From an uncultured delta proteobacterium (GTDB lineage: Bacteria > Desulfobacterota > Desulfobacteria > Desulfobacterales > JAHEIW01), in the NCBI GenBank assembly GCA_963706575.1, contig CAVPNL010000015.1, forward strand, positions 64,001 to 128,000: a stretch of DNA of 64,000 nt, written 5' to 3'. The first letter of the stretch is position 1, and each line of letters starts with the position of its first letter. Under the pieces are notes generated by a model. The model was not told the origin of the DNA, did not search any database, and worked only from the letters and a program-made list of their open reading frames with translations. This document shows, one piece after another, positions 97-57,685 of the stretch. The position numbers were made by a program, and so were the translations under genes.

Positions 97-480
97 TTAT
101 AAAAGCCTTGCCATGCAGGTTATCTCCACACGGCTCCCGTGAAATAGTCGCGGGGACTCCGTGGTTGTCCTTGCTGGGTAATGGCCGTGTTCGAAAAACT
201 TCTGGTAGGCGTCGTCCATTGTGTCGAAGTCCTCAAGGCTTGCGAGATGCACGTCAGTTCGCACAATGCGATCCATTTCAAGTCCAATCTCCTTCAACAT
301 GCTGCGAATGGCAGTCAACACAACGCGGGTTTCCGCTCCCACGTCTCCGAGCGCCGTTTTACCTTCAGGAAAATCAGCAGCCACCAAACCCGCAAAATGA
401 GCATAAGTGTCGTCCATTACAACTTGGCTAAAAGGGGCTGTCGACTCGGGAACGGCCATTGGTTGAATGTGACGAATCAT
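97..480 (-). CDS. RidA/YjgF/UK114 family protein (enamine/imine deaminase-like)
   Basis: 127 aa; APFSQVV, YPARTT and RVEITCMA motifs typical of the Rid family; AGGAGG RBS upstream. Confidence 0.85.
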   Translation of the reverse strand: MIRHIQPMAVPESTAPFSQVVMDDTYAHFAGLVAADFPEGKTALGDVGAETRVVLTAIRSMLKEIGLEMDRIVRTDVHLASLEDFDTMDDAYQKFFEHGHYPARTTTESPRLFHGSRVEITCMARLL

Positions 481-706
481 CTGTCCTCCTTTATTAAAAA
501 TTTTGGTAAATATTCGTTTTTTGGGGCAGAAACATAGAGTAGGTCACCTTGTTTGTCAAATAAGAAGAAAACAAAATTGCACTTTGAGTCTTGTGTGAAT
601 AATGGGAAAAGAGTATAGGAGAGCTAAAACTCGCTCTCATTTTCTTGACTGATTTGTCCACAATAATTTGAAAACCTACAGCTCTTTTATCACTTAAGAG
701 GTTCTT

Positions 707-1735
707 ATGATAGTTAGTCATTCGCGATTAAAGGATATTTATACAGCGTGTTTTACGAAAGCCGGAATTCCAAGGAGCGAATCGGACATATTAACTCGTT
801 GTTATATGAATGCCGACCTGCGTGGTGTCCATTCCCAAGGCATTTGCTTTCTTCCCACAACATGCCGATCGGTGCTTGAGGGTTCTATGGTTTCAGGCAC
901 ATCTTTGGAGACGGTAAATGAAGGCGCTTGTTTCGCACTGATGGATGGTAACAATGGATTGGGCCCTGTAATTGCGACAAGGGGAATGAATTTTGCTATT
1001 GAAAAGGCCCTCTCGCAGGGTCTGGGCTGTATCGTCATTCGTAACGCCAATGATCTCAGCATGCTGGCCAACTATACGATGCAGGCGATTGCGCACGATT
1101 GTATCGGCATTGCGATGACACAGGGCGCTGCAAAGGTTGCGCCATGGGGCGGCCGAGAACCATTTTTCTCGACCAATCCGATATCCATCGCCATACCGGC
1201 CAACAAAAAATATCCAATAGTTCTTGACATGGCGACCAGCGTTGTCGCCGCGGGCAAAATATCGCAAGCCGCTGACAACCGCGAAACGATTCCTGAAGGC
1301 TGGGCCATGGACGCCTCGGGTCAAACCACCACCGATCCCAATGAAGCGATAAAAGGAGCGCTGCTTTCACTGGGGGGCTATAAGGGATTTGGTTTGGCGA
1401 TTATGGTGGATGTATTAAGCGGGGTGCTTGCCGGCATGTCCATGACCCGTGACGCCAAAGCAAAGCGGCCCTGGAACGCGGGGCAGTTCTTTTTGGCCAT
1501 ACATGTTGAGAGTTTCGTGCCGAAGGATTCCTTCAAAGACGCCATTGATGAGTTCATTGTAGATATAAAATCCTGTCGGACCAGACCTGGATTTTCTGAG
1601 ATCAAAATGCCGGGCGAACGCGGATGTCAGGCGACGGAGAAAAGCCGGGACGCCGGTGTCGAGATCCCCGATTTTTTGTGGCAAGATGTTATTGAATTGA
1701 CCGACGAGCTGAACGTGGCCATTCAATCTATTTAA
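707..1735 (+). CDS. Ldh_2 family oxidoreductase (malate/L-lactate/ureidoglycolate dehydrogenase-like)
   Basis: 342 aa; ADLRG, DGNNGLG, TNPISIAIP, LDMATS, GGYKGFGL and MPGE motifs. Confidence 0.85.
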   Translation: MIVSHSRLKDIYTACFTKAGIPRSESDILTRCYMNADLRGVHSQGICFLPTTCRSVLEGSMVSGTSLETVNEGACFALMDGNNGLGPVIATRGMNFAIEKALSQGLGCIVIRNANDLSMLANYTMQAIAHDCIGIAMTQGAAKVAPWGGREPFFSTNPISIAIPANKKYPIVLDMATSVVAAGKISQAADNRETIPEGWAMDASGQTTTDPNEAIKGALLSLGGYKGFGLAIMVDVLSGVLAGMSMTRDAKAKRPWNAGQFFLAIHVESFVPKDSFKDAIDEFIVDIKSCRTRPGFSEIKMPGERGCQATEKSRDAGVEIPDFLWQDVIELTDELNVAIQSI

Positions 1736-1871
1736 CGAAGAGCTCCCTCGGAAAATTGACGAACGTTTCACAACCGTTATCTGTAACCCGTATCGGTTCG
1801 CTGCATTCGAAGCCAAACTCATCCAGCCAAATGCCGGGCATCAGATGGAGGGTCATATTGGGTTTCAAAAC
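1728..1871 (-). pseudogene. 3' relic of an M24-family hydrolase (ectoine hydrolase/creatinase-like C-terminus)
   Basis: Manual translation gives VLKPNMTLHLMPGIWLDEFGFECSEPIRVTDNGCETFVNFPRELFVK*; in-frame TAA TAG immediately upstream and no 5' part. Confidence 0.7.
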
Positions 1872-1934
1872 CTATTAGTTGATATTGATCATTAATAACC
1901 ACCTAAGTCACTAACCAAGCATAGGAGGAAAGAT

Positions 1935-3122
1935 ATGACTTTTAAAGGAGCCTTGTTTATGAGCCCGGAAAGGGTGATTTTCGGGTGTGGGGTGGTCGAT
2001 GATATCGGTACCTACGTAAAACAGCTCGGAGGAATAAAGCCCTTTATCGCCACCGATAAGATAATTTCCGCCATCGCCGCTTTCCAACATATCGAAAATT
2101 CTTTGAAAAAGGATAATATTGACTACCATCTGTATACGGATTGCGATGTCAATCCGACCGACATGCAAATTGAAAACGGATGTAAAATTTACAAAGAGGC
2201 AAAATGCGATGTCATCATTGGTGTGGGCGGCGGCAGCAACTTGGACACCGCCAAATCGATCGGAATAATTGCTACGAATTCCGGCTCAATTCGGGATAAT
2301 TTTGTTACAAGTTATGTAACCGATCCCTATGACACGCCCAATAAAAATGCAACACCACCCATGATTATGGTTCCAACAACCGCCGGAACGGGCAGTGAGG
2401 TAGGCGCCTGGACAGTAGTGACCAATACGGCTGAAAATTATAAAGGCTTTTGCGGCGGATGGATGTGCCTCCCCAAAATCGCTTTATTGGATCCGCTGAT
2501 GACCGTAAGCATGCCGCCGAAATTGACCGCATCAACCGGTTTCGATGCTTTGATCCATGGCATTGAAGCCTATTACCATCGCTATAAAATGCCGCAAACA
2601 GACCTGTATGCGATTTCGGCGATCAAACGAATTTTTAAATACCTGGGTCGAGCCATTGCCAACGGTCGTGATATAGAAGCAAGAGAGCAGATGCTTCTGG
2701 GGGCCATGGAAGCCGGTTTTGCCATGAACACCGGATGTGCTTTGATCCACTCCTCCGGCCTGCAATTAACCTCCAAATTCGGCCTCAGTCATGGTGAAAC
2801 CCTGGCCATCATGGCAGGTCCGGTGATGAGGTTCAATACCATGGCTTGTGTGGACCGGATGATCGATATTGCTAAAGCAATGGCAGAAAATGTTCGCGGA
2901 TTAGGCAAGCTCGACGCCGCCTATAAGGCTGCTGAAGCCGTTCAAAAATATGCTCAATCCATTGAAGTGCCGGTCCATTTGACCAAGGAGATTCATGATC
3001 CGTCCGTGATCCCACATATGGCCCAAAACGCCATATCCAACGACAACACGTATGGGAATCCGCGCATCCCCACCCTGGAACAATTGGAAGCGCTTTACAG
3101 GCAAGCGTATAGTGATCTTTGA
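1935..3122 (+). CDS. Iron-containing alcohol dehydrogenase (Fe-ADH family)
   Basis: 395 aa; GGGSNLDTAK, PTTAGTGSE, DALIHGIEAY and H...SHG metal-binding motifs. Confidence 0.9.
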   Translation: MTFKGALFMSPERVIFGCGVVDDIGTYVKQLGGIKPFIATDKIISAIAAFQHIENSLKKDNIDYHLYTDCDVNPTDMQIENGCKIYKEAKCDVIIGVGGGSNLDTAKSIGIIATNSGSIRDNFVTSYVTDPYDTPNKNATPPMIMVPTTAGTGSEVGAWTVVTNTAENYKGFCGGWMCLPKIALLDPLMTVSMPPKLTASTGFDALIHGIEAYYHRYKMPQTDLYAISAIKRIFKYLGRAIANGRDIEAREQMLLGAMEAGFAMNTGCALIHSSGLQLTSKFGLSHGETLAIMAGPVMRFNTMACVDRMIDIAKAMAENVRGLGKLDAAYKAAEAVQKYAQSIEVPVHLTKEIHDPSVIPHMAQNAISNDNTYGNPRIPTLEQLEALYRQAYSDL

Positions 3123-3382: not shown

Positions 3383-3727
3383 TTAGCAGGTACTACCATT
3401 CCAGCCAAACATAGAAGGTTGCATATCGATCAGGCGATGGTATTGACGATCCGGTACTACGCCCAGTTCCGTTTGCACGAACTCCGTTAGGGTTTTTACA
3501 AACTCCGCGGCCTGCTCCTGTGGAAAAGCGAACAGTTTTAACTGAATATATGCGGTTGGTTCCGTGCTGTCGTCGATCATCAGATGGGCACCGGGATTGA
3601 TGAGCACCATGATCGAACTTTTGGGTTTGTCCAGCATATTCGCCAGCAGATCGGTGGCTTTGTGCAGGAGCGCAGTGCAATGTTCGGGCGTGATGCTTTG
3701 ATTGGTATCTAATGTTAATATCGGCAA
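3383..3727 (-). CDS. MIF/phenylpyruvate tautomerase-like protein
   Basis: 114 aa with N-terminal Pro after a TTG start; KPKSSIMV and C-terminal GWNG; AGGAGG RBS. Confidence 0.8.
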   Translation of the reverse strand: MPILTLDTNQSITPEHCTALLHKATDLLANMLDKPKSSIMVLINPGAHLMIDDSTEPTAYIQLKLFAFPQEQAAEFVKTLTEFVQTELGVVPDRQYHRLIDMQPSMFGWNGSTC

Positions 3728-3793
3728 TTTGACACCTCCTTAGATCAAGATGACGGGGATGTCATCGGGTTGGTTACAATAGAACGGCCACTT

Positions 3794-4753
3794 CTAACCA
3801 ACCACTTTCAGCTTCGGTTGGATGGGCTGGGGGTCGTAGCCGCTGTCGGCGGTGATGCAAGACACCCCTTCAGCGGTTATCAGATCCCGCAACGTCTCCA
3901 TATGGGCGTCATCCGGGGGATTGATATGATGCAGTTTGTAATCCAGTCCAAGCGCAGTATATTTGGAGAGACCTAATTTGTGATACGGCAGAATTTCAAT
4001 GCCTAACGCACCGGGAAGATGGTCACGAACAAATTTGGCGGTGGCCTTGATGTTCTCTGTGCTGTCATTGATGGACGGTATGACCGGAATTCTGATCACC
4101 ATGGGAATATCAAGCGCTGCAATTTTTTTGGCATTTTCAAGAATTCTCTTATTGGCACCGCCCGTAATTGCTTTATGGGTTTTGTCATCCATGTGTTTGA
4201 TATCAAACAAGACAAAATCAGCCAGCCTGACGGTATCTTCTACAGCTTCCCAGCTAAAAAACCCGCAGGTTTCGATGGCAGCGTGAATCCCCAATTCCTG
4301 GCATCCTTCGATAACTGCTTTCAAGAAATCCGGCTGGGTTAAGGGTTCGCCGCCACTGAAGGTGACACCCCCGGAAGACTTTCGATAAAAAACCATATCT
4401 TTTTTTATGATCTGTATCAGCTGGGTCGCTGACAGTTCTTCCCCCAGCCAGGCACGGGCACCCGAATGACAGACCTCGATGCATTTGCCGCACTGGATAC
4501 ATATACCGCCTGAAAATGCGCCCTCTTTTGCAGGGATGGCAACGTCCTCAGGACATTCCCGGGCGCAGGCATGGCATTCGACACACCTCGAGGGGAAGAT
4601 CCCGATTTGCGGCAGACGATCCTGAGATTCGGGATTCGCGCACCAGGGACAATGCAACGGGCAGCCTTTTAAAAAGACCACTGTTCGGGTACCCGGTCCG
4701 TCCGACACCGACCAGCGCTGGATTTCTATGACTACATTTTTCACTTTAGACAA
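3794..4753 (-). CDS. Glycyl-radical enzyme activating enzyme (radical SAM with 2x[4Fe-4S] insert)
   Basis: DGPGTRTVVFLKGCPLHCPWCANPESQ; two CxxCxxCxxxC motifs; GGVTFSGGEP; directly downstream of the GRE gene. Confidence 0.95.
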   Translation of the reverse strand: MSKVKNVVIEIQRWSVSDGPGTRTVVFLKGCPLHCPWCANPESQDRLPQIGIFPSRCVECHACARECPEDVAIPAKEGAFSGGICIQCGKCIEVCHSGARAWLGEELSATQLIQIIKKDMVFYRKSSGGVTFSGGEPLTQPDFLKAVIEGCQELGIHAAIETCGFFSWEAVEDTVRLADFVLFDIKHMDDKTHKAITGGANKRILENAKKIAALDIPMVIRIPVIPSINDSTENIKATAKFVRDHLPGALGIEILPYHKLGLSKYTALGLDYKLHHINPPDDAHMETLRDLITAEGVSCITADSGYDPQPIQPKLKVVG

Positions 4754-4799
4754 TTAACTATAACCGATCTTAATCTGCCTCAGTGCGGATTAACACCAA

Positions 4800-4930
4800 A
4801 TGAGCTAAAATTAAAAATGATCTAAAATGCCTAAAATTACAGTCTCGCTGCGCTCCATCTACTATTATAAAAATGACAGAATTCCTCAATTTTAGGCATT
4901 TTAGCTCATTTTAGGCACTTTAGGCACTGC
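4800..4930. repeat. Short degenerate 9-10 bp tandem repeats in two inverted blocks (GCCTAAAAT / ATTTTAGGC)
   Basis: tgagctaaaa..tgatctaaaatgcctaaaat on the left; ttttaggcattttagctcattttaggcactttaggcact on the right. Confidence 0.7.
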
Positions 4931-4992
4931 TAACTTACCAGCACCTCTGGAACTTATTTCTCTGTCATCCAAAATAGACTATTAATTTGGAA

Positions 4993-7422
4993 TCAAAGAC
5001 TTTCATGCGTGGTGCGGCGAATAATCTCGTTTTGCACTTCCTTGGAAAGATCATTAAAAATGGCGCAATAGCCCGCGACACGGACCACCAAATCACGATA
5101 GTTATCCGGATTCTTTTGGGCATCCCGCAGGGTCTCCGGGCTGATGACGTTAAACTGGCAGTGATAGCCGCCGAGTTCAAAATAGGATCGAATCAGATTG
5201 GCCATGCCGGCCAGGCCACGATTGCCCTCGATGGCAGAAGGCAGCAGCTTGAGATTCAGCAGGGTTCCACCGGGATGTAATTCGTGGTTGACTTTTGCTT
5301 CGGAGCGCATGGCCGCAGTGGGTCCACTGGTATCGGTTCCCGGGTGAGGGGAGCAGCCTTCGGCCAGCGGATGGGTTGCTTTACGCCCGCAGGGAAGCGC
5401 ACCCACCACCGAACCGGTGGGAATATTATAGGTCAGCCCCATAATCGCGCTATGGAAGGGGTTGCCCAACGAATCTTTGTAGCGGCTCAGCCCTTTATCA
5501 TTATAGTCCGTCATTTCGACCTGGAGACGATCGACATAATCATCATCATTGCCGAACTTGGGAGAATTCTTGAGCAATTGCTGAATTTCTTCATGGCCGA
5601 CAAAATCGTCGTCCAGGGCCTTAACCAGCTGGTCCATGGTGATGTTCTTTTCCTCAAACACATTCTTTTTAATGGCCGCCAGGCCGTTGGCACAGTCGGC
5701 TGCGCCCACGACAATCCAACCCGGACCGACATTATAGCGGGCACCGCCGTTTACCAGGTCTTTGCCGCTTTCCATGCAGCCTTCGACCAGAAGAGAAAGA
5801 TAGGGACGATGAACCATTTTGCGATGCAGTTTGTGCTCAATCACGGTCGAAACCGCACAGTGTTTCATAATGTGGTCGACTTGCTCAAAAAAAGTTTCTT
5901 TAAGCTCTTCGAAAGAAGTAAACTCACGCGGGTCTCTGGTGGGCAAACCCATTTGTTTACCGGTGAGGCGGCTGCGGCCCTGATTGAGTGTCCATTCCAG
6001 GGCGGCTGCCATGTTGTAGCCACCCGCATCCGTCCACTCATAAACCTTGCGGTGATGGGGTACAACACAGCCGAGCAACGTCCACTCCCGGGCATCGTCG
6101 GGCCGCAATCCGGCATACATCATCATCTGGGTACCCACCTGATCATTGTGAAAGGCCGGGAAGCCGATACCTTTACGGGAGAGGCGGCAGCAGGCCAGTA
6201 AAAATTCTTGCGGCGTATCCGGTTGAATAATGACACTCAGGGAGGGTTGCGGCAGGGCAACCTGGGATGTGGCCTCGACAGCCATGAAACTGACATCATT
6301 TACGGCATCGCTGCCATCAATGTTGCGACCGCCGACACTCAGATTGGTAAAACCACTGTAGCCGGCATAATATCGACTGCCATTCTGGGGCAAGAGCCAG
6401 ATGAGTTCGGCAATTTTTATCCAGATGCAGTTAATAATTTCCTGTGCAAATTCTTTTTTTATACTGTCTGTTTCCAGATCGGCTTGAAAAAACGGATTCA
6501 TATACATGTCAAAGCGCCCGATATTGAAGGCCGGGCAGTTTTCGGAAAGAAAGCAACCCAGCATCACAAACCACAGCATTTGCCCGGCTTCCCAGAAGTT
6601 ACGTGGTGAATATTCCGGTACCCGGCGGCAGTTTGCCGCAATGGTTTCCAGTTCCTTTTTGCGCCCGGGATCCTGTTCTTTTTTGGCCATGTCCGCTGCA
6701 TACTCAGCATAGCGTTTTCCTAACGTAATAATCCCCTCACAGGCCTCGATGGCTGCTTTGTAGTAATCGATTTTATCAAGGTCTTCGTCATTGGTATATT
6801 TTAAGGTTTTCAGTTTTTCTTTGGCTTCATCACAGATAGCCCGAAATCCTTTCGGAAAAATGATATCCTGAAAATCGGGGGTAATTTCACCGACATGACT
6901 GCGCCATTTCATTTCGGTATCAAGAATATCCGTATCCACACCAATTTTGAGGGTGTCTTCAGGGAACCGTGCCAGGGCGTTCTCTTCAAGGGATTTTCCT
7001 TGCCAGTAAGGAATAATTTCTTCAACAAACAGGCGTTCTTGTTCCGGGTCTATATAATAGGGGTCGCGAGGTCTTGTTTGAACGGTGTCCAGCTCTTTGG
7101 CAAGCCACTTCCAAGAAATTTCAGGGACCAGGGCGCCCATTCGGCGTGCAGAGCCGTGGGTTCCCACGATTAATTCGTCGTCAAATATATTGAGAGTTAT
7201 GGTTTCACACGCCAAACGAAAGGCCTTGGCCAGGCGCACCGTCGTGGCTTGGCCTTCGGTTTCTTTGTAAGAGCGGGTAAACGCCAGGGCCCGCTCCATA
7301 CATATCGCCGGCTTTGAATCCAAATAGGCGTTTTTTAAACGCTGGGTTCTCGTTTCCTCCTTAAAAACACTCGACGATTCACTCGTATCATACGTTAAAT
7401 CAATGGCTTCCTGTGCTGGCAT
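4993..7422 (-). CDS. Glycyl radical enzyme (PFL2/CutC-related), substrate unknown
   Basis: ~809 aa from ATG 7422 (AGGAGG RBS); Gly loop RVAGY, Cys loop LLGCVVP, GRFD, YYAGY and PKFGNDD. Confidence 0.93.
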   Translation of the reverse strand: MPAQEAIDLTYDTSESSSVFKEETRTQRLKNAYLDSKPAICMERALAFTRSYKETEGQATTVRLAKAFRLACETITLNIFDDELIVGTHGSARRMGALVPEISWKWLAKELDTVQTRPRDPYYIDPEQERLFVEEIIPYWQGKSLEENALARFPEDTLKIGVDTDILDTEMKWRSHVGEITPDFQDIIFPKGFRAICDEAKEKLKTLKYTNDEDLDKIDYYKAAIEACEGIITLGKRYAEYAADMAKKEQDPGRKKELETIAANCRRVPEYSPRNFWEAGQMLWFVMLGCFLSENCPAFNIGRFDMYMNPFFQADLETDSIKKEFAQEIINCIWIKIAELIWLLPQNGSRYYAGYSGFTNLSVGGRNIDGSDAVNDVSFMAVEATSQVALPQPSLSVIIQPDTPQEFLLACCRLSRKGIGFPAFHNDQVGTQMMMYAGLRPDDAREWTLLGCVVPHHRKVYEWTDAGGYNMAAALEWTLNQGRSRLTGKQMGLPTRDPREFTSFEELKETFFEQVDHIMKHCAVSTVIEHKLHRKMVHRPYLSLLVEGCMESGKDLVNGGARYNVGPGWIVVGAADCANGLAAIKKNVFEEKNITMDQLVKALDDDFVGHEEIQQLLKNSPKFGNDDDYVDRLQVEMTDYNDKGLSRYKDSLGNPFHSAIMGLTYNIPTGSVVGALPCGRKATHPLAEGCSPHPGTDTSGPTAAMRSEAKVNHELHPGGTLLNLKLLPSAIEGNRGLAGMANLIRSYFELGGYHCQFNVISPETLRDAQKNPDNYRDLVVRVAGYCAIFNDLSKEVQNEIIRRTTHESL

Positions 7423-7460
7423 GGCTAACCTCCTTTGCATGAAGATTTTAGGCTTTTATA

Positions 7461-7492
7461 CTTGTATACAAGAATACAGGTTGGCCTGTCAA
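7461..7492 (-). promoter_or_regulatory. Putative sigma70 promoter of the GRE operon with an overlapping palindromic operator CTTGTATACAAG
   Basis: TTGACA at 7492-7487 on the minus strand; perfect 12 bp palindrome at 7461-7472 resembling GntR-family operators. Confidence 0.55.
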
Positions 7493-7617: not shown

Positions 7618-7690
7618 TTCATTTCTCCTCTGCAAATTGCTTTTATAGATTGCGATAATCGCGCATCTGCTGGTATATACGGGTATTGAA

Positions 7691-7943
7691 TAGAAGTGGT
7701 TTCAAAACCCCATCTAAGGCCCCATGGCTGCGTTGCCCCGCAAGCGGGATTCGCATCTAATTTTTTAGATTAGGGTGCAGCACAGGCCTCCGATAAATGC
7801 TCACATACCCAAAGTATGCTGAGAACAACGACTTTCCCGATCGGCCTGACGCCTTGATGCATACCTTAATTTGTTTAGATCAGACATGTAATCCCGCTTA
7901 GCGGGGCCCTTGAACCTGATCTGAGATTTTGAAACCACTTCTA
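7691..7943. mobile_element. MITE family A copy 1
   Basis: Perfect 17 bp terminal inverted repeat TAGAAGTGGTTTCAAAA...TTTTGAAACCACTTCTA; interior shared with copies at 9413, 25269 and 41188, plus extra CCCGC..GCGGG palindromes. Confidence 0.85.
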
Positions 7944-8002
7944 ACAAAAAGCCGGTCATATAACAATTTCATGGCATATCCAGCTGAACAAGAGGAGTTC
8001 AA

Positions 8003-9415
8003 ATGACGGATTGGGATGAAAAAACAGATATAATCGTTATCGGCAGCGGCTTGGCCGGGTTGGCTGCAGCCATCGAAGCCGCTCATGCCGGCGCTTCAGT
8101 TATCGTTTTTGAAAAAATGAAAGTGATCGGCGGCAACACCCGCATCAGCGACGGGGCCTTAGCGGCACCTGGCAACTACTTGCAAAAAAAGCTCGGGATA
8201 GAGGATTCGCCGGAATTGTTTTATGATGATATGCTACGCGCTGGTTTGAACCTGAATCATCCGCAACTCGTAAGAATCTTCGCTGAAAGAGCGGCAGAAA
8301 CCATAGAGTGGACCCGCAAAGAACTGGGCGTGAAATACATGGATCGATTGGACCGATTCGGCGGGCATTCTGTGGCCCGCAGCCTAACCACAAAGAGCCA
8401 TTTGGGAGTGGATATTATCAAAGCACAGACGGCTAAACTGAGTGAACTGGATGTCGAAATCCGCACCCGCTGCCTGCTGACGGGCTTCATCGTTGACAGT
8501 AAGGAAACAGCCATATGCGGCGTTAACATCCGGGTCGGTTACCATTTCCCAGATGAAAACAGCGGAACCGAAAAAAAAATTGGCGCCAATCGTGCCGTCA
8601 TTTTGGCCACAGGTGGATTCGGCAATGACCTGCCATTTTGCAGACTTCAGCGCCCGGGGTTAGATGAATCTATTCAATCAACCAACCAGCGGGGGGCGAC
8701 TGCAGAGGGAATGGTTGCGGCTTTAAGTGTGGGGGCCCTTCCCGTTCATCTTTCCTGGATTCAAATGGGACCATGGGGCTGCCCGGATGAAAAGGCATAC
8801 GGCAAAGGGGCCCGTTTTGCCTCCTACAGCGTGTACCCGGCGGGTATACTTATCGACCCGGCGACCGGTTGCCGGTTTGTCAATGAATGGGGGGATCGCC
8901 GCGAACGGTCCGAAGCCATGTTGCGCGCCGGTCAGGCCTGTATTGGAATTGTTGACAGCAATGGCGCGCAAAAGGATGCGGAGAGCCTCAAAGATTGCCT
9001 CAAAAATGGAAGGGTGAAAGGGTTCGAAAATTTGTCGGATCTGGCCGAAGCCTACGGGATTCCGTTCTCTGCCTTAAACCATACGCTCATTGATTATAAT
9101 AAAGCTATTTTGGAAGGCCAGCCGGACGCCTTCGGGAAGCCTCTTGGCCAGGATACCCCGCCATTGAAAAAGCCGCCATTTTACGCCATGAGGCTCTGGC
9201 CCAAACTGCATTACACACCGGGCGGCATCGGAATTAATTCGAAAGCTCAAGTGATCGACCTAAAGGGCCAACCGATCCGACGCCTATTTGCAGCCGGCGA
9301 AGTATGCGGCGGTATCCACGGCGCCAGTCGTTTGAGTAGTTGCGCCCTAACCGAATGCCTCATATTCGGGCGTATTGCCGGTCAGGAGGCCGCTTCCGTC
9401 AAGCCGCGGTCTTAG
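8003..9415 (+). CDS. Flavocytochrome c flavin subunit-like FAD oxidoreductase (no heme motifs or signal peptide)
   Basis: IGSGLAGLAAA, GGHSVAR, LATGGF, HYTPGG and AAGEVCGGIHGASRL motifs. Confidence 0.88.
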   Translation: MTDWDEKTDIIVIGSGLAGLAAAIEAAHAGASVIVFEKMKVIGGNTRISDGALAAPGNYLQKKLGIEDSPELFYDDMLRAGLNLNHPQLVRIFAERAAETIEWTRKELGVKYMDRLDRFGGHSVARSLTTKSHLGVDIIKAQTAKLSELDVEIRTRCLLTGFIVDSKETAICGVNIRVGYHFPDENSGTEKKIGANRAVILATGGFGNDLPFCRLQRPGLDESIQSTNQRGATAEGMVAALSVGALPVHLSWIQMGPWGCPDEKAYGKGARFASYSVYPAGILIDPATGCRFVNEWGDRRERSEAMLRAGQACIGIVDSNGAQKDAESLKDCLKNGRVKGFENLSDLAEAYGIPFSALNHTLIDYNKAILEGQPDAFGKPLGQDTPPLKKPPFYAMRLWPKLHYTPGGIGINSKAQVIDLKGQPIRRLFAAGEVCGGIHGASRLSSCALTECLIFGRIAGQEAASVKPRS

Positions 9416-9560
9416 AAGTGGTTTCAAAACCCCATCTAAGGCCCAATGGCTGCGTTGCAGTCCTTCGGTAAATGCTCACATACGCCATGTATGCTGCGCT
9501 TTCCCGATCGGCCTGACGCCTTGCCCTTGAACCTGATCTGAGGTTTTGAAACCACTTCTA
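9413..9560. mobile_element. MITE family A copy 2 (148 bp)
   Basis: Same TIRs as 7691-7943; its left end forms the TAG stop of the upstream gene. Confidence 0.85.
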
Positions 9561-9620
9561 GAGAAGTTTTTAAGGAAAGCAAAATGAATAATAACAGATT
9601 GTGGAGGTATTTGGGTCATT

Positions 9621-10271
9621 ATGAAAGATAAAGCTACAACAACGTGTTTATGCAGAAAAATGGAGTGCTGGCGTGGAGATGATGAGGGCATTCCATCCTA
9701 TTGTCAGGCCAACCATTATGTCGCCGAAATTGAGAAAGCCAGAGAAGTATATGCAGAACCGGAGGTGGTCGATATCTATACCGCCGCATGTGTTGTCGGC
9801 AAAAAAAACGACGGCTACCGACCGCGTATCGAAGAGGCGCTTGATTTCACCAGCGAAATGAAGTTTTCCAGAGTGGGATTCGCTGCCTGTGTGGCCTTTG
9901 GCAAGGAGCTGGAAGTGATTAGACGGCTGTTTGAGCAGGCCGGGATCGAGGTCTTTAGTGCCGGTTGCCAGATCGGCCGAAGCTCTGCCACAGATCGGGG
10001 ATTGCCGCATTTAGAAGCATATCCGGACAATTCAACATGCAATCCCATTGCCCAGGCTGATATTCTGAACAAAGCGCAAACCCAATTGAACTTCATTATC
10101 GGGTTGTGCATGGGGCATGATATTTTATTCACCCGCTACTCCAGAGCGCCGGTTTCCACGCTGATTGTCAAGGATCGGCTGATGGGGAACAATCCTGCTG
10201 CCGCCATCTACGGCTGGCATGCCCGTCGTTCTCTGTTCAAACTGAGTCGAAGTGATGATGAGATGGTATGA
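9621..10271 (+). CDS. DUF1847-like Cys-rich putative metal-binding protein
   Basis: CxCxxxxC N-terminus; CNPIAQA, GLCMGHD and KDRLMGNNP motifs. Confidence 0.8.
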   Translation: MKDKATTTCLCRKMECWRGDDEGIPSYCQANHYVAEIEKAREVYAEPEVVDIYTAACVVGKKNDGYRPRIEEALDFTSEMKFSRVGFAACVAFGKELEVIRRLFEQAGIEVFSAGCQIGRSSATDRGLPHLEAYPDNSTCNPIAQADILNKAQTQLNFIIGLCMGHDILFTRYSRAPVSTLIVKDRLMGNNPAAAIYGWHARRSLFKLSRSDDEMV

Positions 10272-10524: not shown

Positions 10525-11259
10525 ATGATTTACAAAGCGAACAAAGGGCAAACCAGTTACGGCGAAGCCATCGGCATCATTCTGATGGAAAGCTTCATGC
10601 CTTTCCCGCCGGGCTGCCCCGGAAACGCCACAACCTTTTCTTTTCCGGTCAGATATGCCAATGTCAAAGGCGCCAATATGGAAAAATTGGTCTATCAGGG
10701 CGATCCCGAGCTGCTAAAGCCCTTCATCGATGCCGGTTGGGATCTGGTTAACGAAGGGGTCAAAGCGATTACCGGAAATTGCGGATTTATGGTTCTCTAC
10801 CATGAGGTGATGGCCAAGGAATTTCCGGTCCCGGTTTTTATGTCCAGTTTATTGCAGTTGCCGTTTATCTCCCGCATGCTGAAGCCCGGTGAAAAGATTG
10901 GCATCATCACAGCCAGTGGCAAAACCTTAACAGAAAAACATTTGCAGATTGCCACCAATGGCGCTAATATCCCCCTCGCCATCGCCGGCATGGAGGATCA
11001 AAAGCATTTTTATGATGCGATTCATGCCGAAGTCGGGGAACTCGATTTCGACGGGGTTGAAGCGGAAGTCGTTCAGGTGACCCGGAACCTGGTTGAAAAG
11101 GAAGAAAATATTAAAGCGATTTTATTTGAATGTACCGATCTTCCCCCATATGCGGCTGCGACTCAGGAAGCGGTCGGATTGCCTGTTTTCGATTTTTCGA
11201 CCATGATTAATTATGTACATTCGGGCCTTGTCCGCAAAAGATTTGAGGGCTTCTGTTAA
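10525..11259 (+). CDS. Aspartate/glutamate/hydantoin racemase superfamily protein
   Basis: 244 aa; GNCGF and ECTDLPPY two-Cys motifs; PVFMSSLLQ. Confidence 0.8.
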   Translation: MIYKANKGQTSYGEAIGIILMESFMPFPPGCPGNATTFSFPVRYANVKGANMEKLVYQGDPELLKPFIDAGWDLVNEGVKAITGNCGFMVLYHEVMAKEFPVPVFMSSLLQLPFISRMLKPGEKIGIITASGKTLTEKHLQIATNGANIPLAIAGMEDQKHFYDAIHAEVGELDFDGVEAEVVQVTRNLVEKEENIKAILFECTDLPPYAAATQEAVGLPVFDFSTMINYVHSGLVRKRFEGFC

Positions 11260-11325
11260 ACTGATAAAAAAATATCATGCCTTTGTGGTCTTTATAAAAG
11301 CGAACCTTAAAGAGGAGGAGTATCC

Positions 11326-12792
11326 ATGTCTGAAAAAGTTTATCAAAAAAAAGCGTTTATCGGGGGTGAATGGGTCGAATCGGAAAGTGGTGAACGATTC
11401 GAGGTCAATTATCCGGGCGATGGCAGTGTCATCGGTACGGCACCGGCCTGCACCCGTAAAGATGCCCAGAAAGCGATAGATGCGGCCATCGAAGGGCAGA
11501 AAGCCCTGGCAAAACTTTCGCTGGTAAAACGCATCGAACTGCTGCACAAGGCGACGGAGCTCGCGAAAAAAAGAGATGAAGAATCATCCCGTCTCACCTG
11601 TCTGGAATCCGGAAAGCCCATCCAGCAGGCCATCTGGGAGGGAAGCACCATCGATGGCTATAGCTGGAGTAATTTCCACGTTGCGGCTGCCAATATAAAA
11701 TCGCACCGCGGCATGACCCTGCCCAATGTCACCGAAGATTCCAACAATAAACGCTTAATCCATATTTACGAACCGGTGGGCGTGGTGGTGAACATTTCAA
11801 CCTTCAGCTATCCCTCTGAAATGCCCAATTGTACGATTCCCTATGCCCTGGCAGCGGGCAATGCCGTTATTGTGAAACCGTCATCCGGATCACCTTTCAG
11901 CAGCATTCTTATCGCCGAGGTCTTGGAGGAGGCCGGTTTTCCGCCCGGCAGCATTAATGTGTTGACCGGTGCCGGTGAAGAAGTCGGAGCGGAATTGGCC
12001 GCCAATTCGGGCACCCAGGCAATCGGCCTTTTTGGCCAGGAGCAAACCGGCGAAAAAGTGGCCCGGAATGCGGCCATGAAAAAACTGTTGTTTGCCATCG
12101 TGTCGAACAATCCGCTGATCGTCATGGATGATGCCAACATCGAAGCGGCCGTGGAAGCCGCCATCGGCGGGTGCTATGCTCATAACGGGCAGTCGCCGAT
12201 ATCCACCCGACGAATATTGCTTCACAAAGATGTGCACCAGGGTTTTATAAGCCGCTTTGTGGAAAGAACCCAGGCCCTCAACCTGTCAGACCCGTTGGAT
12301 GAAAAGGCAGACGTCGGGCCGGTCCACAACAGCAAAGTGCTTGAAGTCGCACTTAGCCATCTGGAAGATGCTCGCAAAAAAGGCGCTAAATTTTTAACCG
12401 GCGGCAACAACCCCAAAGGGCTTTATATAGAGCCTACCATAATCGATGAGGCCACCGGCGACATGCTCGTCACCCAGGAAGCCACACCGGGTCCGATAGC
12501 GCCGATCATGACGTTTGAAAATATCGATCAGGCCGTCGAGCTGGCCAATTCAACACGCTTTGGGTTTCAGATCGGCGCGTTTACCAGTGGTCTGGCAAAT
12601 GCCTATTATCTGGCTGAGAACATTCAAGCCGGTAGCGTGTATATCAACGAAGCGACCAATTGCTGGGATGAAATGGCGCCCTTCGGCGGTGTCAAGAAAA
12701 GCGGCATCGGCAGAATGCTGTCGGATTGGACATTCAATGAATTAAGCCAGATCAAAATGATTTTATTTGATCTCGGCAAAGTAAAAAAATAA
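11326..12792 (+). CDS. Aldehyde dehydrogenase superfamily protein lacking canonical catalytic residues
   Basis: ESGKP, EPVGVV, ALAAGNAVIVKPS and PFGGVKKSGIGR retained; GQxC reads GQSP and ELGGK reads AIVSN. Confidence 0.85.
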   Translation: MSEKVYQKKAFIGGEWVESESGERFEVNYPGDGSVIGTAPACTRKDAQKAIDAAIEGQKALAKLSLVKRIELLHKATELAKKRDEESSRLTCLESGKPIQQAIWEGSTIDGYSWSNFHVAAANIKSHRGMTLPNVTEDSNNKRLIHIYEPVGVVVNISTFSYPSEMPNCTIPYALAAGNAVIVKPSSGSPFSSILIAEVLEEAGFPPGSINVLTGAGEEVGAELAANSGTQAIGLFGQEQTGEKVARNAAMKKLLFAIVSNNPLIVMDDANIEAAVEAAIGGCYAHNGQSPISTRRILLHKDVHQGFISRFVERTQALNLSDPLDEKADVGPVHNSKVLEVALSHLEDARKKGAKFLTGGNNPKGLYIEPTIIDEATGDMLVTQEATPGPIAPIMTFENIDQAVELANSTRFGFQIGAFTSGLANAYYLAENIQAGSVYINEATNCWDEMAPFGGVKKSGIGRMLSDWTFNELSQIKMILFDLGKVKK

Positions 12793-12802
12793 GGAGACAT
12801 CC

Positions 12803-14782
12803 ATGGGTTATATGCGTGGTGGAACCATTTTAAGGATAGATCTGGGGACAGGCTCGATTGTAAGAGAACCGACCGCCGATTACACAAAACAGTGGTTCGG
12901 CGGACGGGGGCTGAATTCCAGAATCCTTTATACGGAAACCGGCCCGGCAGTCAAACCGCTGGAACCGGAAAATGTGCTGATGTTCAGCCTCGGCCCTTTT
13001 ACCGGAACCATGGTGCCCGGCTCCGGCCGGGTCGAAGTGGCCGCAAAATCACCGGTCATCGGCATCCAAGGCATGGGCAACATGGGCGGCTACTGGGGGC
13101 CGGAGCTAAAATATGCGGGTTATGACAGCATCATTCTAAAAGGCAAAGCAGCCAAGCCGGTCTACATTGCCATCCATAATGACGAAGTCGAGATAAAAGA
13201 CGCCGCGCATCTCTGGGGAATGGACACCTACCGGACCCAGGACGCCATTCGGCAGGAAATGGGCGATCCCGAGATCGAAGTGGTTTGTATCGGGCCGGCC
13301 GGCGAAAATATGATCGGCTATGCCTCCATCCAGAACCGCATGGGAAATGCCGCCGGGCGAACCGGTATGGGTACCGTCATGGGATCTAAAGACCTCAAGG
13401 CCATTGCCGTGCGCGGCACCAAGGGCGTGGCCATCGCGGAGCCCGACAGATTTTTTGAATTGTGCCTGGAGGCCCTGCAGATTCAAAAGCCCCAGCTGGG
13501 AATGGCCAAAACCATCGATCTGGCCGACAACGATCCCCCATCGTGGGGGCTGACACTGGGAAACTACGAAGCCACCGAATGGGAAAAGCAAAAAGAATTA
13601 AAAGACGGACACAAGCCCTTTTGGGAAAACCACAAAAACCGCCAGGGAGAAGGCATCACCGGATGCTTCAACTGCCAGGTCCGCTGCATGGATTACTACG
13701 AGCTTCCCGAATGGGGCCCTCTGGTCGCCAGCTGCAACCTGTATGCCTCGACCACATGGGTATTAAAGGATCCGGACATGAAATCCTGGTATGCGTTTGT
13801 TTCAAAATGCCAGCGCCAGGGCATTGATTCCACCTCGGCTTCACGCATGATTGCCTGGGCCATGGAACTTTATGAACAGGGCAAAATCACTCAAAAAGAT
13901 ACAGACGGAATCGCGCTCAACTGGGGAAACAAAGAAGCCATTGGTCTGATGCTCGACAAAATCGTCAAAAAAGAAGGTTTTGGCGAGGTGTTGGCCAGCA
14001 ATCCGGCCGAGGCCGCCAAAAAGATTGGTGATGACGTTGAAGAAGCCTTACAGATAAAGGGTCTGCCCCTGGGGGGCACCAACGTCATGAATTTCCGGGC
14101 GCGGACCATCGGCGCGGTGGTCAATCCCAGAGGCGGTGATGAATATCGCGCCCGGGTCGGTGCCTTCGACAATCTCGGCAGCGGTAAGAATACCGGAATG
14201 ACCGGAATGTCCAGCCCCGACAGCTGGGAAGCCAAAACCGCCATGTCCATCATCGATGCGGCCCTGGCGAAAAAGAAAGAGGCCGGGGAAGAGCCGATAA
14301 TCGGCCAGTTCGATTACGAGGGCCGCGGGGCGCTGGCCGCCTTGGGCCAAAAGATTTCGACAGTCAGTGATACGCTGGGACAGTGCAAATGGAATACCAT
14401 TTTTCTGAATGTGGGCATTAGCATGGAGTTTCAGGCCAACGCCCTTTCGGCGGGAACGGGACGGGAGACAGGCATCGAAGAGCTCCTGGAAGCCGCATCA
14501 CGCATCTCCTGCCAGGAAAGAGCTTATGCCGTGCGCGAGGGGATGACGAAAGATCAGGACACCCTGCCTAAAAAATTGATCAATTATTCGATGGCGGGAA
14601 CCTATCCGGATGACCAGGTCACGCCGGAGGGCCTAGAAAAAATGAAAGACGAATATTATCAAGCAATGGGCTGGGATGTTAAAACCGGTATTCCAACGCT
14701 CGATACCCTGCGTGCGCTCAATCTGGAAGATGTGGCATCTGATTTGATCAAACAGGGTAAACTTAAAGATGAAATAAAGTAG
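12803..14782 (+). CDS. Aldehyde:ferredoxin oxidoreductase (tungsten AOR/WOR family), divergent
   Basis: GGRG, KSP, GG..GPELKYAGYD, IGPAGEN, AAGRTGMG and CFNCQVRC; no EYET motif. Confidence 0.88.
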   Translation: MGYMRGGTILRIDLGTGSIVREPTADYTKQWFGGRGLNSRILYTETGPAVKPLEPENVLMFSLGPFTGTMVPGSGRVEVAAKSPVIGIQGMGNMGGYWGPELKYAGYDSIILKGKAAKPVYIAIHNDEVEIKDAAHLWGMDTYRTQDAIRQEMGDPEIEVVCIGPAGENMIGYASIQNRMGNAAGRTGMGTVMGSKDLKAIAVRGTKGVAIAEPDRFFELCLEALQIQKPQLGMAKTIDLADNDPPSWGLTLGNYEATEWEKQKELKDGHKPFWENHKNRQGEGITGCFNCQVRCMDYYELPEWGPLVASCNLYASTTWVLKDPDMKSWYAFVSKCQRQGIDSTSASRMIAWAMELYEQGKITQKDTDGIALNWGNKEAIGLMLDKIVKKEGFGEVLASNPAEAAKKIGDDVEEALQIKGLPLGGTNVMNFRARTIGAVVNPRGGDEYRARVGAFDNLGSGKNTGMTGMSSPDSWEAKTAMSIIDAALAKKKEAGEEPIIGQFDYEGRGALAALGQKISTVSDTLGQCKWNTIFLNVGISMEFQANALSAGTGRETGIEELLEAASRISCQERAYAVREGMTKDQDTLPKKLINYSMAGTYPDDQVTPEGLEKMKDEYYQAMGWDVKTGIPTLDTLRALNLEDVASDLIKQGKLKDEIK

Positions 14783-14804
14783 AACCTAATATGGAGGCTG
14801 GTAA

Positions 14805-15335
14805 ATGAGCAACGTTATCATTATTCATCCCGAAAAGTGCAGTGGCTGCCAGATGTGTGAGGTCAGCTGCTCTCTCAGAAATATGAAGGAATGCAATCCG
14901 GAACGATCGCGCATCCGCGCCATCAAGTCCGAAGAAAATGGCCAGCTCCAGTTTATCCCGTCCACCTGTATGCAGTGTGAAACGGCGATGTGTGAATTGG
15001 TCTGTCCGGTGAATGCCATCAGCAGAGATCCGCAAACGGGCGCCCGGATTATTAGCGAAAAAAAATGTATTGGCTGCAGTTCCTGCAGTTACGCCTGCCC
15101 CTTCGGTGCCTGTTTCGTCGACCGCAGCCTGGGCAAATCCATTGTTTGCAATCAGTGTGACGGCGATCCCACCTGTGTTAAAGTGTGTCCGTCCGGTGCG
15201 CTTGAATATGTGAATGCCGACCAGGTGAACATCAGCCTCAAGCGGGCGGCTGCCCGGCGTATTATGAATGCCCAGGAGATCATTCGAGAATCGCCCGGAC
15301 CGCTGAACGTCAAACCGGATCAGGACCTGTGCTAG
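14805..15335 (+). CDS. 4x[4Fe-4S] electron-transfer subunit (AorA/DmsB-like)
   Basis: CSGCQMCEVSC, CMQC....CELVCP, CIGCSSCSYACPFG and CNQC.....CVKVCP. Confidence 0.9.
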   Translation: MSNVIIIHPEKCSGCQMCEVSCSLRNMKECNPERSRIRAIKSEENGQLQFIPSTCMQCETAMCELVCPVNAISRDPQTGARIISEKKCIGCSSCSYACPFGACFVDRSLGKSIVCNQCDGDPTCVKVCPSGALEYVNADQVNISLKRAAARRIMNAQEIIRESPGPLNVKPDQDLC

Positions 15336-15547: not shown

Positions 15548-17219
15548 GTGGATATGGTTTGGCAGGGCGATACCTATGATGAAATATGCCGTAATTTCAG
15601 ATGGGAGTTTCCGGAATATTTCAATATCGGCGTGGATATTTGCGATAAATGGGCCGACGACAAATTCCGTTTAGCACTGATATACCTTGATGAGGATGAA
15701 CGCGAGCACAAAATTACCTACTGGGAATTAAAAAACGCCTCAAATCGACTGGCAAATGCATTGCGAGAATACGGTGTCGCCCGCGAGGACCGCATCGGGA
15801 TATTAATGGCGCCCGCGCCGGAGACCTTAATTTCCCATATTGCCGTTTACAAATTGGGCGCCATCCTGGTACCCATGATCCAGCTTTTTGGGCCTCTGGC
15901 GATCGAGTATCGCCTTAAAAACAGCGGGGCCAAAAGCGTTATTACGGATAAAAAAAATCTGGCGAAAATTTTAGAAATTAAAGATCGCCTTCCCGACCTG
16001 AAACTTATCATCGCGGTCGATGCCCAGGGAGAGACGGATGTCTTGGACTTTGGGGAGACATTAGCCCGTGGCAGCCGGTATTTCACACCGGTGGAAACAA
16101 AACCGGATGACCCGGCCTTAATTATTTACACCTCAGGGACCACGGGCCCTCCCAAAGGCGCACTTCACGGTCATCGCCTGATGATTGCCGAGGCCACCAA
16201 TACGGGGTTCTCGCTTGACCTTTTTCCCCAAAAAGGAGATCTGCTGTGGACCCATTGCGATTGGGCCTATATCGCGGGATCCTTTACCGCTCTTTACCCG
16301 ACAATGCATTACGGGCAAGCCATCGTTGAGTATGCCAAAACCGGGAGATTTGATTCCGAAAAGGCTTTTTCCATTATCTCCAAATATGGCGTCACGGTGA
16401 TATTTGCGATCGCCACGGCGTTCCGGATGATGATGCATGCGGTCAAGAATCCGAAAGAGCGTTACGATCTGGATGAATTGAGATCCATCACCGTGGGCGG
16501 CGAGACCATGGGAAAGGATCTCTACGAATGGGGCCAGAGGGCGCTGGGGGTTGAATTCAACGAAAATTACGGTATGACCGAATGCGATTTCATGGTTTCC
16601 AATTGTTCCAAAATCATGAAGGTTTACCCGGGTTCGATGGGCCGCGCGATTCCCGGACATATCGTTGAAGTCATCGATGAGCAGGGTAACGTCCAGGAAG
16701 CCGGCGAGTATGGTGAGTTTGCGATCAAACAACCTGATCCCAGCATATTTCATCGGGTACTGGGGCGATCCGGAAGCCACCCAAAAACGATTTATCGGCG
16801 AATGGTTTCGCACCGGTGATTACGGCACCAAAGATGAAAACGGCTATTTCTGGTTTACCGGCCGCAGGGATTACGTCATCGAAAGCGGCGGTTATCGAAT
16901 CGGACCTGGCGAGGTCGAAGATGCACTGGTCAAGCACGATGCCGTGAAACTGGTCGCCGTGATCGGTGTTCCGGATGAGATCAGAGGTGAAATTGTCAAG
17001 GCGTTCATTGTGCCCGAGCAGGGTGTGACGGCGGATAAAGCACTGGAAGATCGCCTCAAACAGCATGTCAAAGGCCAATTGGAGGCACACGCCTATCCGC
17101 GGGAGATAGAATTCCTCGAGGAGATGCCGATGACGGACACCGGCAAGATTATGAAAAATGAGCTGCTCAAAATGGATCAAAAAAGCCGCACCAAAATAAA
17201 AGCGGATAAAGAAAAATAA
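15548..17219 (+). CDS. Acyl-CoA synthetase (AMP-forming); one frameshift near 16748, probably a sequencing error
   Basis: YTSGTTGPPKG and YGMTE in the first frame; RTGD, GRRD, GYRIGPGEVE and TGKI in the next frame; removing one T restores PSIFIGYWG. Confidence 0.85.
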
Positions 17220-51816: not shown

Positions 51817-51848
51817 TTATAAACCGCATCCTTAGAGGAGACAGGTTC

Positions 51849-52503
51849 ATGTTAGATGAAAAGATCATTGAAGAAGCAATGCAACTGATTATTCAACAGA
51901 ACAAGGAAGCGGCAGCCAAACTGGCCCAAAAGGTCATATCTGAAGGCGTCTCTCCCATTGAATTATTGAACGAAGGATTTATTCCCGGGATCAATAAGGT
52001 TGGCGATTTGTTCGGGCGCGGCGAGCTGTTTCTGCCGGAATTGATTAAAGCGGCCGATACCATGAAAACGGTTACCGATATCGTCAACGAAGCGATCGCA
52101 GATGGCCCGGACAAACCGGAGGCCCAGGCGAAGGTTGTTATCGCCACGGTCAAAGGTGATGTTCACGATATCGGCAAAGCGATCGTGGTCTCATTGATGC
52201 GAGCCAACGGATTTACCGTTTATGATCTGGGGCGCGATGTCGAAACGGATAAGATCATCGAAGAAGCGCAAAAAGGTGGATGCAGACATCATCGGCACCA
52301 GCGCCCTGCTGACGACCACCATGCCCAAGCAGAAAGAGCTTGAAGAAGCGCTCAAAAGCGCCGGCTTGAGGGATCGTTTTAAAACGGTGGTCGGCGGTGC
52401 CCCGGTGACCCCTCGCTGGGCGGCCCGGATCGGTGCCGATGCCTATGCCGAAGATGCTCAGGACGGTGTTTTGAAAGTAAAAGAGCTCCTCGCACAGTCG
52501 TAG
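51849..52503 (+). CDS. mtbC: Cognate corrinoid protein (MtbC-like; +1 frameshift in the A-run near 52272)
   Basis: FLPEL, GDVHDIGK B12 motif and DLGRDV; next frame SALLTTTM, VGGAPV and IGADAYAE. Confidence 0.88.
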
Positions 52504-52545
52504 GCGGCTACCGACTTTAAATCCTTGTTGACATTTATCGGATTC

Positions 52546-52582
52546 CATTGTCGGCGTGCCCATTACTGATGCGCCGACAATG
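52546..52582. other. Intergenic stem-loop between mtbC and aor
   Basis: CATTGTCGGCG ... CGCCGACAATG, 11 bp perfect stem with no U-tract. Confidence 0.5.
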
Positions 52583-57675: not shown

Positions 57676-57685
57676 GAGACCACCT

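Follow-up and report, generated by a model that had tools for sequence, protein, structure and literature searches.

Background

Glycyl radical enzymes (GREs) that act as eliminases or isomerases are noted for a glutamate two residues beyond the catalytic cysteine. In the available sections of a June 2026 review (PMC13450708), this CxE motif is kept by all C-O, C-N and C-S eliminases and by all isomerases, including six C-O eliminases and three isomerases, while choline trimethylamine-lyase (CutC; TIGR04394; PDB 5FAU, 5A0U) is the sole C-N 1,2-eliminase. The present study concerns a gene from an uncultured member of the Desulfobacterales whose product resembles CutC but carries valine in place of that glutamate (GCVVP). 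It lies in a stretch of 64,000 nucleotides, here called the window, taken from positions 64,001 to 128,000 of contig CAVPNL010000015.1 (assembly GCA_963706575.1; contig C15 below). An original prediction had described the product as a CutC-related GRE without assigned function, plausibly cleaving a C-N bond. Our results indicate that GCVVP marks a real and large family of GREs, apparently unstudied, whose catalytic loop is altered, and lead us to a tentative proposal for its chemistry.

The mechanisms of the closest described enzymes provide the frame for this comparison. In the accessible text of PMC12451663, the amine of the CutC substrate is proposed to migrate, giving a carbinolamine that Asp216 and Glu491 stabilise, and His209, Thr502 and Phe395 are assigned to the active-site region. 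Asp216 of CutC, Gln193 of IslA and His160 of HypD form one shared substrate-contacting site (PMC8473560). HypD, according to the accessible portion of PMC7077986, takes the hydrogen adjacent to nitrogen, with other acids handling proton transfer.

Open PubMed Central and bioRxiv text, a scope that takes in few subscription papers, held no paper with the motif or with the accession of the Peptoclostridium acidaminophilum member. Among the titles and abstract openings of literature listings, which do not extend to supplements, none dealt with the family, nor is it mentioned in the available parts of PMC11528403, PMC12814064 and PMC12507026. Supplements to similarity networks may already hold a GCVVP cluster without a function.

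Results and discussion

A glycyl radical enzyme with valine at the CxE site

The gene is intact and occupies the minus strand, in an uninterrupted open reading frame (ORF; 4993-7440) of 815 amino acids, the frame used here for residue numbers. The probable true start is an ATG at 7420-7422, preceded by AGGAGG, giving a product of 809 amino acids (4993..7422) that matches the closest homologs in length. Pfam and fold searches both find the PFL-like barrel (PF02901, 692 bits) and the glycyl radical domain (PF01228, 112 bits), which places the protein in the PFL-like GRE superfamily. As first described, the cysteine loop (6058..6072) reads G-C-V-V-P on minus-strand codons 6072-6058, with Cys458 at 6067-6069 and Val460, a GTA codon, at 6061-6063, the site of CutC Glu491. 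The glycine loop RVAGY (residues 787-791; 5068..5082, minus strand) contains Gly790, predicted from the alignment to bear the radical; Cys458 and Gly790 align to CutC Cys489 and Gly821. By every feature tested, the protein is a GRE. One further GRE is encoded in the host genome (5.67 Mb, 91.8% complete), on contig C3.

To what extent the motif is a property of the family was judged from 240 listed homologs: the best 120 of 1,055 proteins found with the window protein (E <= 1e-100) and the best 120 of 1,705 found with a Firmicutes-type query (E <= 1e-250; 7,996 candidates scored). Most of the 1,705 probably belong to the family, because CutC scores well below the latter threshold. GCVVP is present in all 240 and is thus clade-wide. 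There is next to no chance that the valine reflects a sequencing error (GTA for GAA, the escape named in the original prediction) or a dead enzyme: error is ruled out by this conservation and by the use of four Val codons at position 460 across 76 GCVVP loci (GTG 30, GTA 21, GTT 20, GTC 6), and the cysteine, the glycine and the activase are all retained.

The clade spans Desulfobacterota, Clostridia and Negativicutes. Its members nearest to the window protein come from metagenome-assembled genomes of Desulfobacterales (92-95% identity) and from Desulforhopalus singaporensis (82%). Hosts among the matches listed include Clostridium carboxidivorans, C. drakei, C. scatologenes, C. magnum, Desulfosporosinus, Desulforamulus, Sedimentibacter, Tissierella, Alkaliphilus and Sporomusa acidovorans, and the enzyme also occurs in P. 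acidaminophilum and Acetoanaerobium noterae; these names derive from search listings and two plasmid-collection records. Distribution within the window's own phylum is patchy, with a profile match in 7 of 401 genomes and GCVVP in only two, the window's genome (G000) and G354. Among same-genus genomes, many of them incomplete, 5 of 21 carry the enzyme. A second paralog type, with Tyr at 471 and Gln at 474, stands in tandem with a window-type GRE in L005 (4000-6495) and L006 (2969-5389), each GRE having its own activase, which suggests two related substrates.

Across the best 150 GRE representatives at 50% identity, 149 of which have an aligned cysteine, 109 keep CxE and 40 do not, so that loss of the glutamate is common among unstudied GRE lineages and not exceptional. 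CxV occurs in just one of the 149, P0122, a member of the GCVVP family; an apparent GCVVP in eight other representatives was an alignment artefact of dropped insertions, and the raw sequences show it in P0122 only. The other 39 lineages lacking the glutamate (in the range P0122-P0271) have Ser, Gln, Asp, His, Thr, Gly or other residues instead.

Placement beside CutC

We built a quick IQ-TREE phylogeny of 68 hand-picked rows (LG+G4), with support from the Shimodaira-Hasegawa-like approximate likelihood ratio test (SH-aLRT) only. The 24 GCVVP rows form one branch (SH-aLRT 100), which splits into a part with the Desulfobacterota rows and a part made up mostly of Firmicutes. CutC and several CxE lineages not yet studied share with it a 43-row group (SH-aLRT 98), separate from HypD, glycerol dehydratase, HpfG and HpsG/IslA; the four CutC rows form a distinct branch, also at SH-aLRT 100. 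Among NCBIfam models CutC ranks best, with 732.9 bits against a cut-off of 1050, followed by PFL2-3 at 668 (cut-off 678), HypD at 630 (1100) and HpsG at 605 (1000), and none reaches its cut-off; P0110, P0022 and P0041 score 747-772 on TIGR04394. CutC is likewise the best-matching solved relative, at about 40% identity. The description as a CutC-related GRE lacking an assigned function is borne out, and no curated family was matched. Clustering with a characterised GRE, which the original prediction had held out as a contrary outcome, was not what we found, given the separate branch and a score below every curated cut-off. By tree and model scores, the GCVVP enzyme is not a member of the CutC, HypD or sulfonate lyase families, and it may work like CutC.

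Adjoining CutC are unstudied lineages of GREs with GCVEPN (L072, L074, L076, L080, L090) that score 754-946 bits on TIGR04394 and carry Lys and Glu at the CutC His209 and Asp216 sites. They are candidate lyases of other amino alcohols.

The same scores bear on the notion that the enzyme is a decarboxylase, for example of an N-methylated amino acid beyond the reach of pyridoxal phosphate (PLP) enzymes, yielding an amine and CO2. Phenylacetate decarboxylase has no identified acidic residue in the available sections of the 2026 review (PMC13450708), basic residues of the GCVVP protein could hold a carboxylate, and methylamine methyltransferases are encoded nearby. The decarboxylase models, however, reach only 375-435 bits against 733 for CutC, and the solved decarboxylases rank low in both sequence and fold searches, so that we regard this function as improbable.

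Active-site residues

CutC numbering was derived from alignments with 5FAY and 5A0U. Invariant in the 240 homologs are Lys178, Trp179, Arg180 and Glu185 of the beta-1 segment (6886..6909, minus strand; CutC His209, Ala210, Val211 and Asp216 sites), together with Phe364 (Phe395), Cys458, Val460 (Glu491) and Thr470 (Thr502). Met667-Gly668 (Leu698-Ser699) and Gly790 are found in 239, the remaining sequence being a fragment, and an aromatic residue is retained at the CutC Phe389 site. The likeness to CutC thus extends beyond fold, identity and a shared wider radiation to the retained Cys489, Gly821, Thr502 and Phe395 and to an acid at the Asp216 site. In contrast, Glu491 has become Val, Asp216 Glu, His209 Lys, Val211 Arg and Leu698 Met, while position 177 (CutC Tyr208) is Ser in 204, Met in 26 and Ile in 10 homologs, position 474 (Tyr506) is Asn in 140, Ser in 66 and Gly in 19, and position 303 (Thr334) is Leu or Pro. 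Every residue of the choline pocket (Tyr208, Asp216, Tyr506, Thr334, Leu698) has therefore been replaced.

These replacements weigh heavily against the label of choline trimethylamine-lyase, which some automatic annotations, including those of the Joint Genome Institute (JGI) for some members, apply. CutC does supply the best hits, and BetI-like regulators and MttB genes lie near L003, L004 and L005. Set against this are the loss of Glu491 along with the pocket, a score of 733 bits where 1050 is needed, identity of about 40%, a separate clade and the lack of any microcompartment genes found, and a divergent choline lyase is accordingly very improbable.

The original prediction had pointed to an Asp, in YEWTDAGGY, as a possible substitute base. 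That residue, Asp471, adjoins the invariant Thr470 (both at 6028..6033, minus strand) and is not conserved, occurring in 29 of the 240 homologs against Ser in 203; it was rejected in this role. A related detail, the matching of YEWTDAGGY with CutC YQWTSTGY, was wrong, as CutC Tyr506 is aligned without gaps to Gly474 and not to a Tyr. A better clue, which had escaped notice, is the invariant strand Lys178-Trp179-Arg180...Glu185.

Other GRE eliminases are instructive in this regard. HypD, HpyG and HpzG (NF043068; PDB 6VXC, 8ID1, 8IOF) act on amino-acid substrates and retain CxE, whereas the GCVVP protein has Glu and Val at the HypD His160 and Glu436 sites and scores, as given above, far below the HypD cut-off. 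HypD stands on a separate branch of the tree, among whose rows HpyG and HpzG are not represented. IslA, IseG and HpsG (NF048011) share a beta-1 arginine, which in their case serves the anionic group of the substrate; they use Arg-Gln-Arg with CxE in the available sections of PMC13450708, and in the GCVVP protein Glu replaces the Gln, the Arg stands one residue away and the beta-8 segment lacks an Arg. A sulfonate lyase is disfavoured by this Glu at the Gln193 site, and models of the sulfonate lyases and dehydratases IslA, HpsG and HpfG give 605 and 504 bits against a cut-off of 1000.

An AlphaFold model of the protein (predicted template modelling score, pTM, 0.87) retrieved CutC first in a fold search, with Z 48.0, a root mean square deviation of 2.1 Å and 786 aligned residues. 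The glycerol and 1,2-propanediol dehydratases (PDB 1R8W, 5I2G, 9RCP) tie with CutC in this search, which favours a dehydratase or ring-opening isomerase that acts on a hydroxylated acid and in which Glu185, or some other residue, takes over from the CxE glutamate. Such a shift has some basis in HypD, where, in the accessible portion of PMC7077986, that glutamate can take a different role and other acids transfer protons, and some loci contain an enolase-superfamily gene, 2-hydroxyacid dehydrogenases or a D-galactonate-type transporter of the major facilitator superfamily. But the dehydratases carry CxE and have His at the Glu185 site, the tree sets the GCVVP clade apart from them, and all the C-O eliminases and isomerases counted in the available review sections (PMC13450708) possess CxE. 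We consider this reading quite unlikely.

Chemistry with no need of a base would dispense with the glutamate altogether: racemisation or epimerisation, in which a hydrogen is abstracted and then returned, thiyl-catalysed alkene isomerisation, or C-C addition or cleavage like that of the X-succinate synthases. Genes related to D-amino acids recur at the loci, and a second cysteine stands two residues before the catalytic one in 205 of the 240 homologs. That position is Leu in the window protein and in 35 of the 240, however, so the second cysteine is missing from the window's branch and was discarded as a family feature; furthermore, no small subunit gene recurs at the loci, and the succinate synthases are distant (27-28% identity). 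Chemistry of this kind is distinctly improbable.

A tentative mechanism of C-N cleavage

Our leading suggestion, tentative and falling somewhat short of an even chance, is that the GCVVP enzyme may be a radical C-N lyase whose substrate is an amine with a carboxylate group and itself provides the base that the protein lacks; ammonia or an amine would leave, and the product would be an aldehyde or oxo-acid. The substrate would probably be an amino-acid derivative. C-N cleavage, which the original prediction had thought plausible, thus stays the best guess. In its favour are the position of the GCVVP branch in the CutC group, the rank of CutC as best solved relative and best NCBIfam model, and the glutamate that is invariant at the site shared by CutC Asp216, IslA Gln193 and HypD His160. 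The invariant Lys, Thr and Phe at the CutC His209, Thr502 and Phe395 sites, the lack of Arg180 in the CxE sister lineages, and the neighbours linked to amino acids, amines and aldehyde oxidation (below) also count for it.

By analogy with established GRE chemistry, the activase would install a radical on Gly790 that passes to Cys458, and the resulting thiyl radical would abstract a substrate hydrogen. From the mapping onto CutC, Glu185, Phe364 and Thr470 could hold the leaving or migrating amine, while Lys178 and Arg180, next to the position vacated by Tyr208, would take the carboxylate in space opened where both CutC tyrosines (Tyr208, Tyr506) stood. With Val460 in place, the Glu491 site offers no base from the protein, and we propose that the substrate would activate itself, either through its own carboxylate, which would deprotonate a hydroxyl, or through an amino group borne by the carbon that loses its hydrogen. 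The product would leave the enzyme in enol or enamine form. A tautomerase and aldehyde-oxidising enzymes (below) might then process it in Desulfobacterota, where a methylamine could also feed MttB-type methyltransferases; in Firmicutes, the product might pass straight into central metabolism. The substrate may differ between the two branches. It is possible, if slightly more doubtful than C-N cleavage as such, that the family constitutes a second class of C-N-cleaving GRE eliminase, the first without the CxE glutamate, with a substrate carboxylate or amino group as base. The boldest form of the proposal, direct methylamine release from a carnitine-type betaine whose carboxymethyl arm fills the Glu491 space, is a long shot.

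Several observations weigh against C-N cleavage of this type. The glutamate is essential in both CutC (Glu491) and HypD (Glu436), as reported in the available parts of PMC13450708 and PMC7077986; no characterised eliminase works without it, and we found no precedent for self-activation. The 43-row group is an open fork that does not single out CutC as the nearest sister, and the fold search ties CutC with the propanediol dehydratases (Z 48.0, 47.5 and 47.3). Lys178 and Glu185 are shared with CxE sister lineages and hence need not mark a carboxylate. Arg180 is offset by one residue from the IslA Arg189 site. The model is unreliable at residues 177-183, 668-676 and 692-708, with a predicted local distance difference test (pLDDT) value below 50 at 177-179 and 181-183, and does not give the orientation of Lys178 or Arg180. 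Finally, no pathway gene is common to the whole family, and the amine-related neighbours of the window's GRE may be regional.

Gene neighbourhoods

Of 96 loci compared, 76 contain GCVVP, and only 26 of these are flanked by 5 kb in both directions; many are kin, and the neighbour counts are lower bounds and not independent. Next to the GRE in the window, a radical SAM GRE activase (3794..4753; TIGR02494, 349.5 bits, cut-off 174) has the CxxxCxxC motif and two auxiliary ferredoxin motifs; we infer from adjacency that it is cognate. It is followed by a Pro1 tautomerase of the MIF family (3383..3727; PF01187, E 1e-18), and both genes are, as originally described, co-oriented with the GRE on the minus strand. 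The activase is matched in 68 of the 75 other GCVVP loci, the tautomerase in six, all of Desulfobacterota type (L001, L003 as a fragment, L004, L005, L006, L011). RidA-, Ldh_2- and Fe-ADH-family genes do lie nearby (97-3122), the last two on the strand opposite to the GRE, but as pathway partners they fail, being matched in 0, 1 and 2 of the 75 other loci, at about 30% identity. Of the two proteins suggested to handle the product, the tautomerase has support as a partner, in the Desulfobacterota branch only, and RidA has none.

Divergent from the GRE, on the plus strand, are a flavocytochrome-c-type reductase and a DUF1847 gene (8003..10271), variable among relatives; the DUF1847 gene (9621-10271) also adjoins the GRE in L001 and G407. 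Beyond them, at 10525..15335 on the plus strand, come genes for an Asp/Glu-racemase-family protein (PRK07475), an aldehyde dehydrogenase (ALDH), an aldehyde:ferredoxin oxidoreductase (AOR) and a ferredoxin, a possible downstream module in Desulfobacterota. ALDH and AOR stand beside the GRE in the window and in L003, L005 and L008, and the 75 other loci yield three racemase-family, three ALDH and four AOR genes. In D. singaporensis, AOR, ALDH and racemase genes diverge from the series GRE2-activase-tautomerase-GRE1-activase-MttB; the tandem GRE pair recurs in L006. MttB directly follows the activase in L005 and in L011, where the order is tautomerase-GRE-activase-MttB-enolase-family gene.

No solved relative was found for the racemase-family protein. 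It is not a specific marker of the GCVVP enzyme, occurring in 22 of 401 genomes of the phylum against 2 of 401 with the enzyme, and the idea that the second GRE paralog replaces it was dropped, as L005 has both paralogs and the racemase (76% identity, under an antisense frame). In G354, whose genome also has a GCVVP enzyme adjoining a MocR-type regulator, a PRK07475 gene stands between an ectoine-hydrolase-like gene and an M20 amidohydrolase (L154; C1:1282499-1286224).

In Firmicutes the locus is mostly reduced to regulator, GRE and activase, the regulator being of GntR-FCD type in 21 and of XRE-cupin type in 19 of the 76 loci. A carboxypeptidase-G2-like M20 hydrolase appears in 13 of the 76, and two Gate-domain membrane proteins, YjiH/YjiG-like (PRK10519), recur in 8 and 7. 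More scattered are diaminopropionate ammonia-lyase (L063 and L071, one lineage), amino-acid racemases, a D-aminoacylase-like amidohydrolase (PRK09061), asparaginase, class III aminotransferases and MocR-type regulators (L007, G354). What these neighbours have in common is the breakdown of amino acids and amines; they do not add up to one pathway.

A few loci could also suit a radical C-S lyase whose substrate is an S-substituted amino acid, a thioether, sulfoxide or sulfone of the cysteine or methionine kind. Hydrogen abstraction beside the C-S carbon and homolytic loss of a sulfur radical would give an enamine and then a 2-oxo acid, which accounts for valine in place of glutamate without a new base and for the stand-alone gene of Firmicutes, and Glu185 and Arg180 suit the binding of an amino acid. 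GNAT, M20 and SDH_alpha-domain genes, the last presumably cysteine-desulfidase-like, accompany the GRE in L050, L052 and L057, as do nitrilase-family amidases in L030, L042 and L044 and TauE in L027. These neighbours are few, though, and come from related loci; ALDH and AOR would not be needed; PLP lyases already perform C-S chemistry on S-substituted amino acids; and the gene belongs to the CutC radiation, not with HpsG/IslA. A C-S lyase is, in our estimation, unlikely.

The original prediction was right about the amine-catabolic surroundings, but these are a feature of the region, and in Firmicutes most members are accompanied only by activase and regulator. The window forms part of a wide stretch devoted to methylamine catabolism, contig C15 having seven MttB-like matches as well as pylS, pylD and a dimethylamine methyltransferase. 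Within the window, 50430-58537 holds Dimeth_Pyl, pylS (above cut-off) and pylD, with radical SAM and ATP-grasp genes between. Outside it, about 9 kb from the GRE, an MttB gene (C15:58725-60195) has an in-frame stop at the pyrrolysine position and is also frameshifted near codon 300; in its counterpart, L002:11463-12935, the stop is TAG. The predicted absence of microcompartment genes was upheld: the four PF00936 (shell protein) matches of the genome are on contig C1 and none is on C15, and tblastn with these four proteins gave no match in the window or in the 76 GCVVP loci, 26 of which extend 5 kb to either side.

The gap between GRE and activase contains a nested palindromic repeat (4790-4930; core 4798..4923), present also in that gap in L002 and L003. 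With 173 blastn hits in the genome, 95 of them covering at least 60%, it looks like an element of the repetitive extragenic palindromic (REP) or miniature inverted-repeat transposable element (MITE) type and is not part of the enzyme system. A second dispersed palindromic family occurs at 7690-7950 and 9416-9565 (196 and 127 blastn hits). At 15548-17219, an acyl-CoA synthetase gene is broken by a frameshift near 16740-16807; its counterpart in L003 is intact (549 amino acids).

Conclusions

All the characterised eliminases and isomerases of the 2026 review rely on the glutamate of CxE, where the window protein has CVV. A large, tightly conserved family beside CutC that has valine fixed at this site must differ from them in chemistry or in substrate class. 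Myo-inositol dehydratase, which we take to be a further enzyme of this kind, is absent from section 5 of the review, which is thus not a complete census. The surprise is limited in that many unstudied GRE lineages also lack the glutamate, and the substrate is a guess. Since cultured, non-pathogenic hosts exist, namely D. singaporensis (with two tandem paralogs), C. carboxidivorans, S. acidovorans and P. acidaminophilum, the family is directly testable. Choline trimethylamine-lyase labels on some of its members may inflate cutC counts in metagenomes. If C-N cleavage proves true, the GCVVP enzymes would represent an unrecognised anaerobic route for amino-acid derivatives in sulfate reducers of sediments and in Clostridia and Negativicutes of digesters and the gut.

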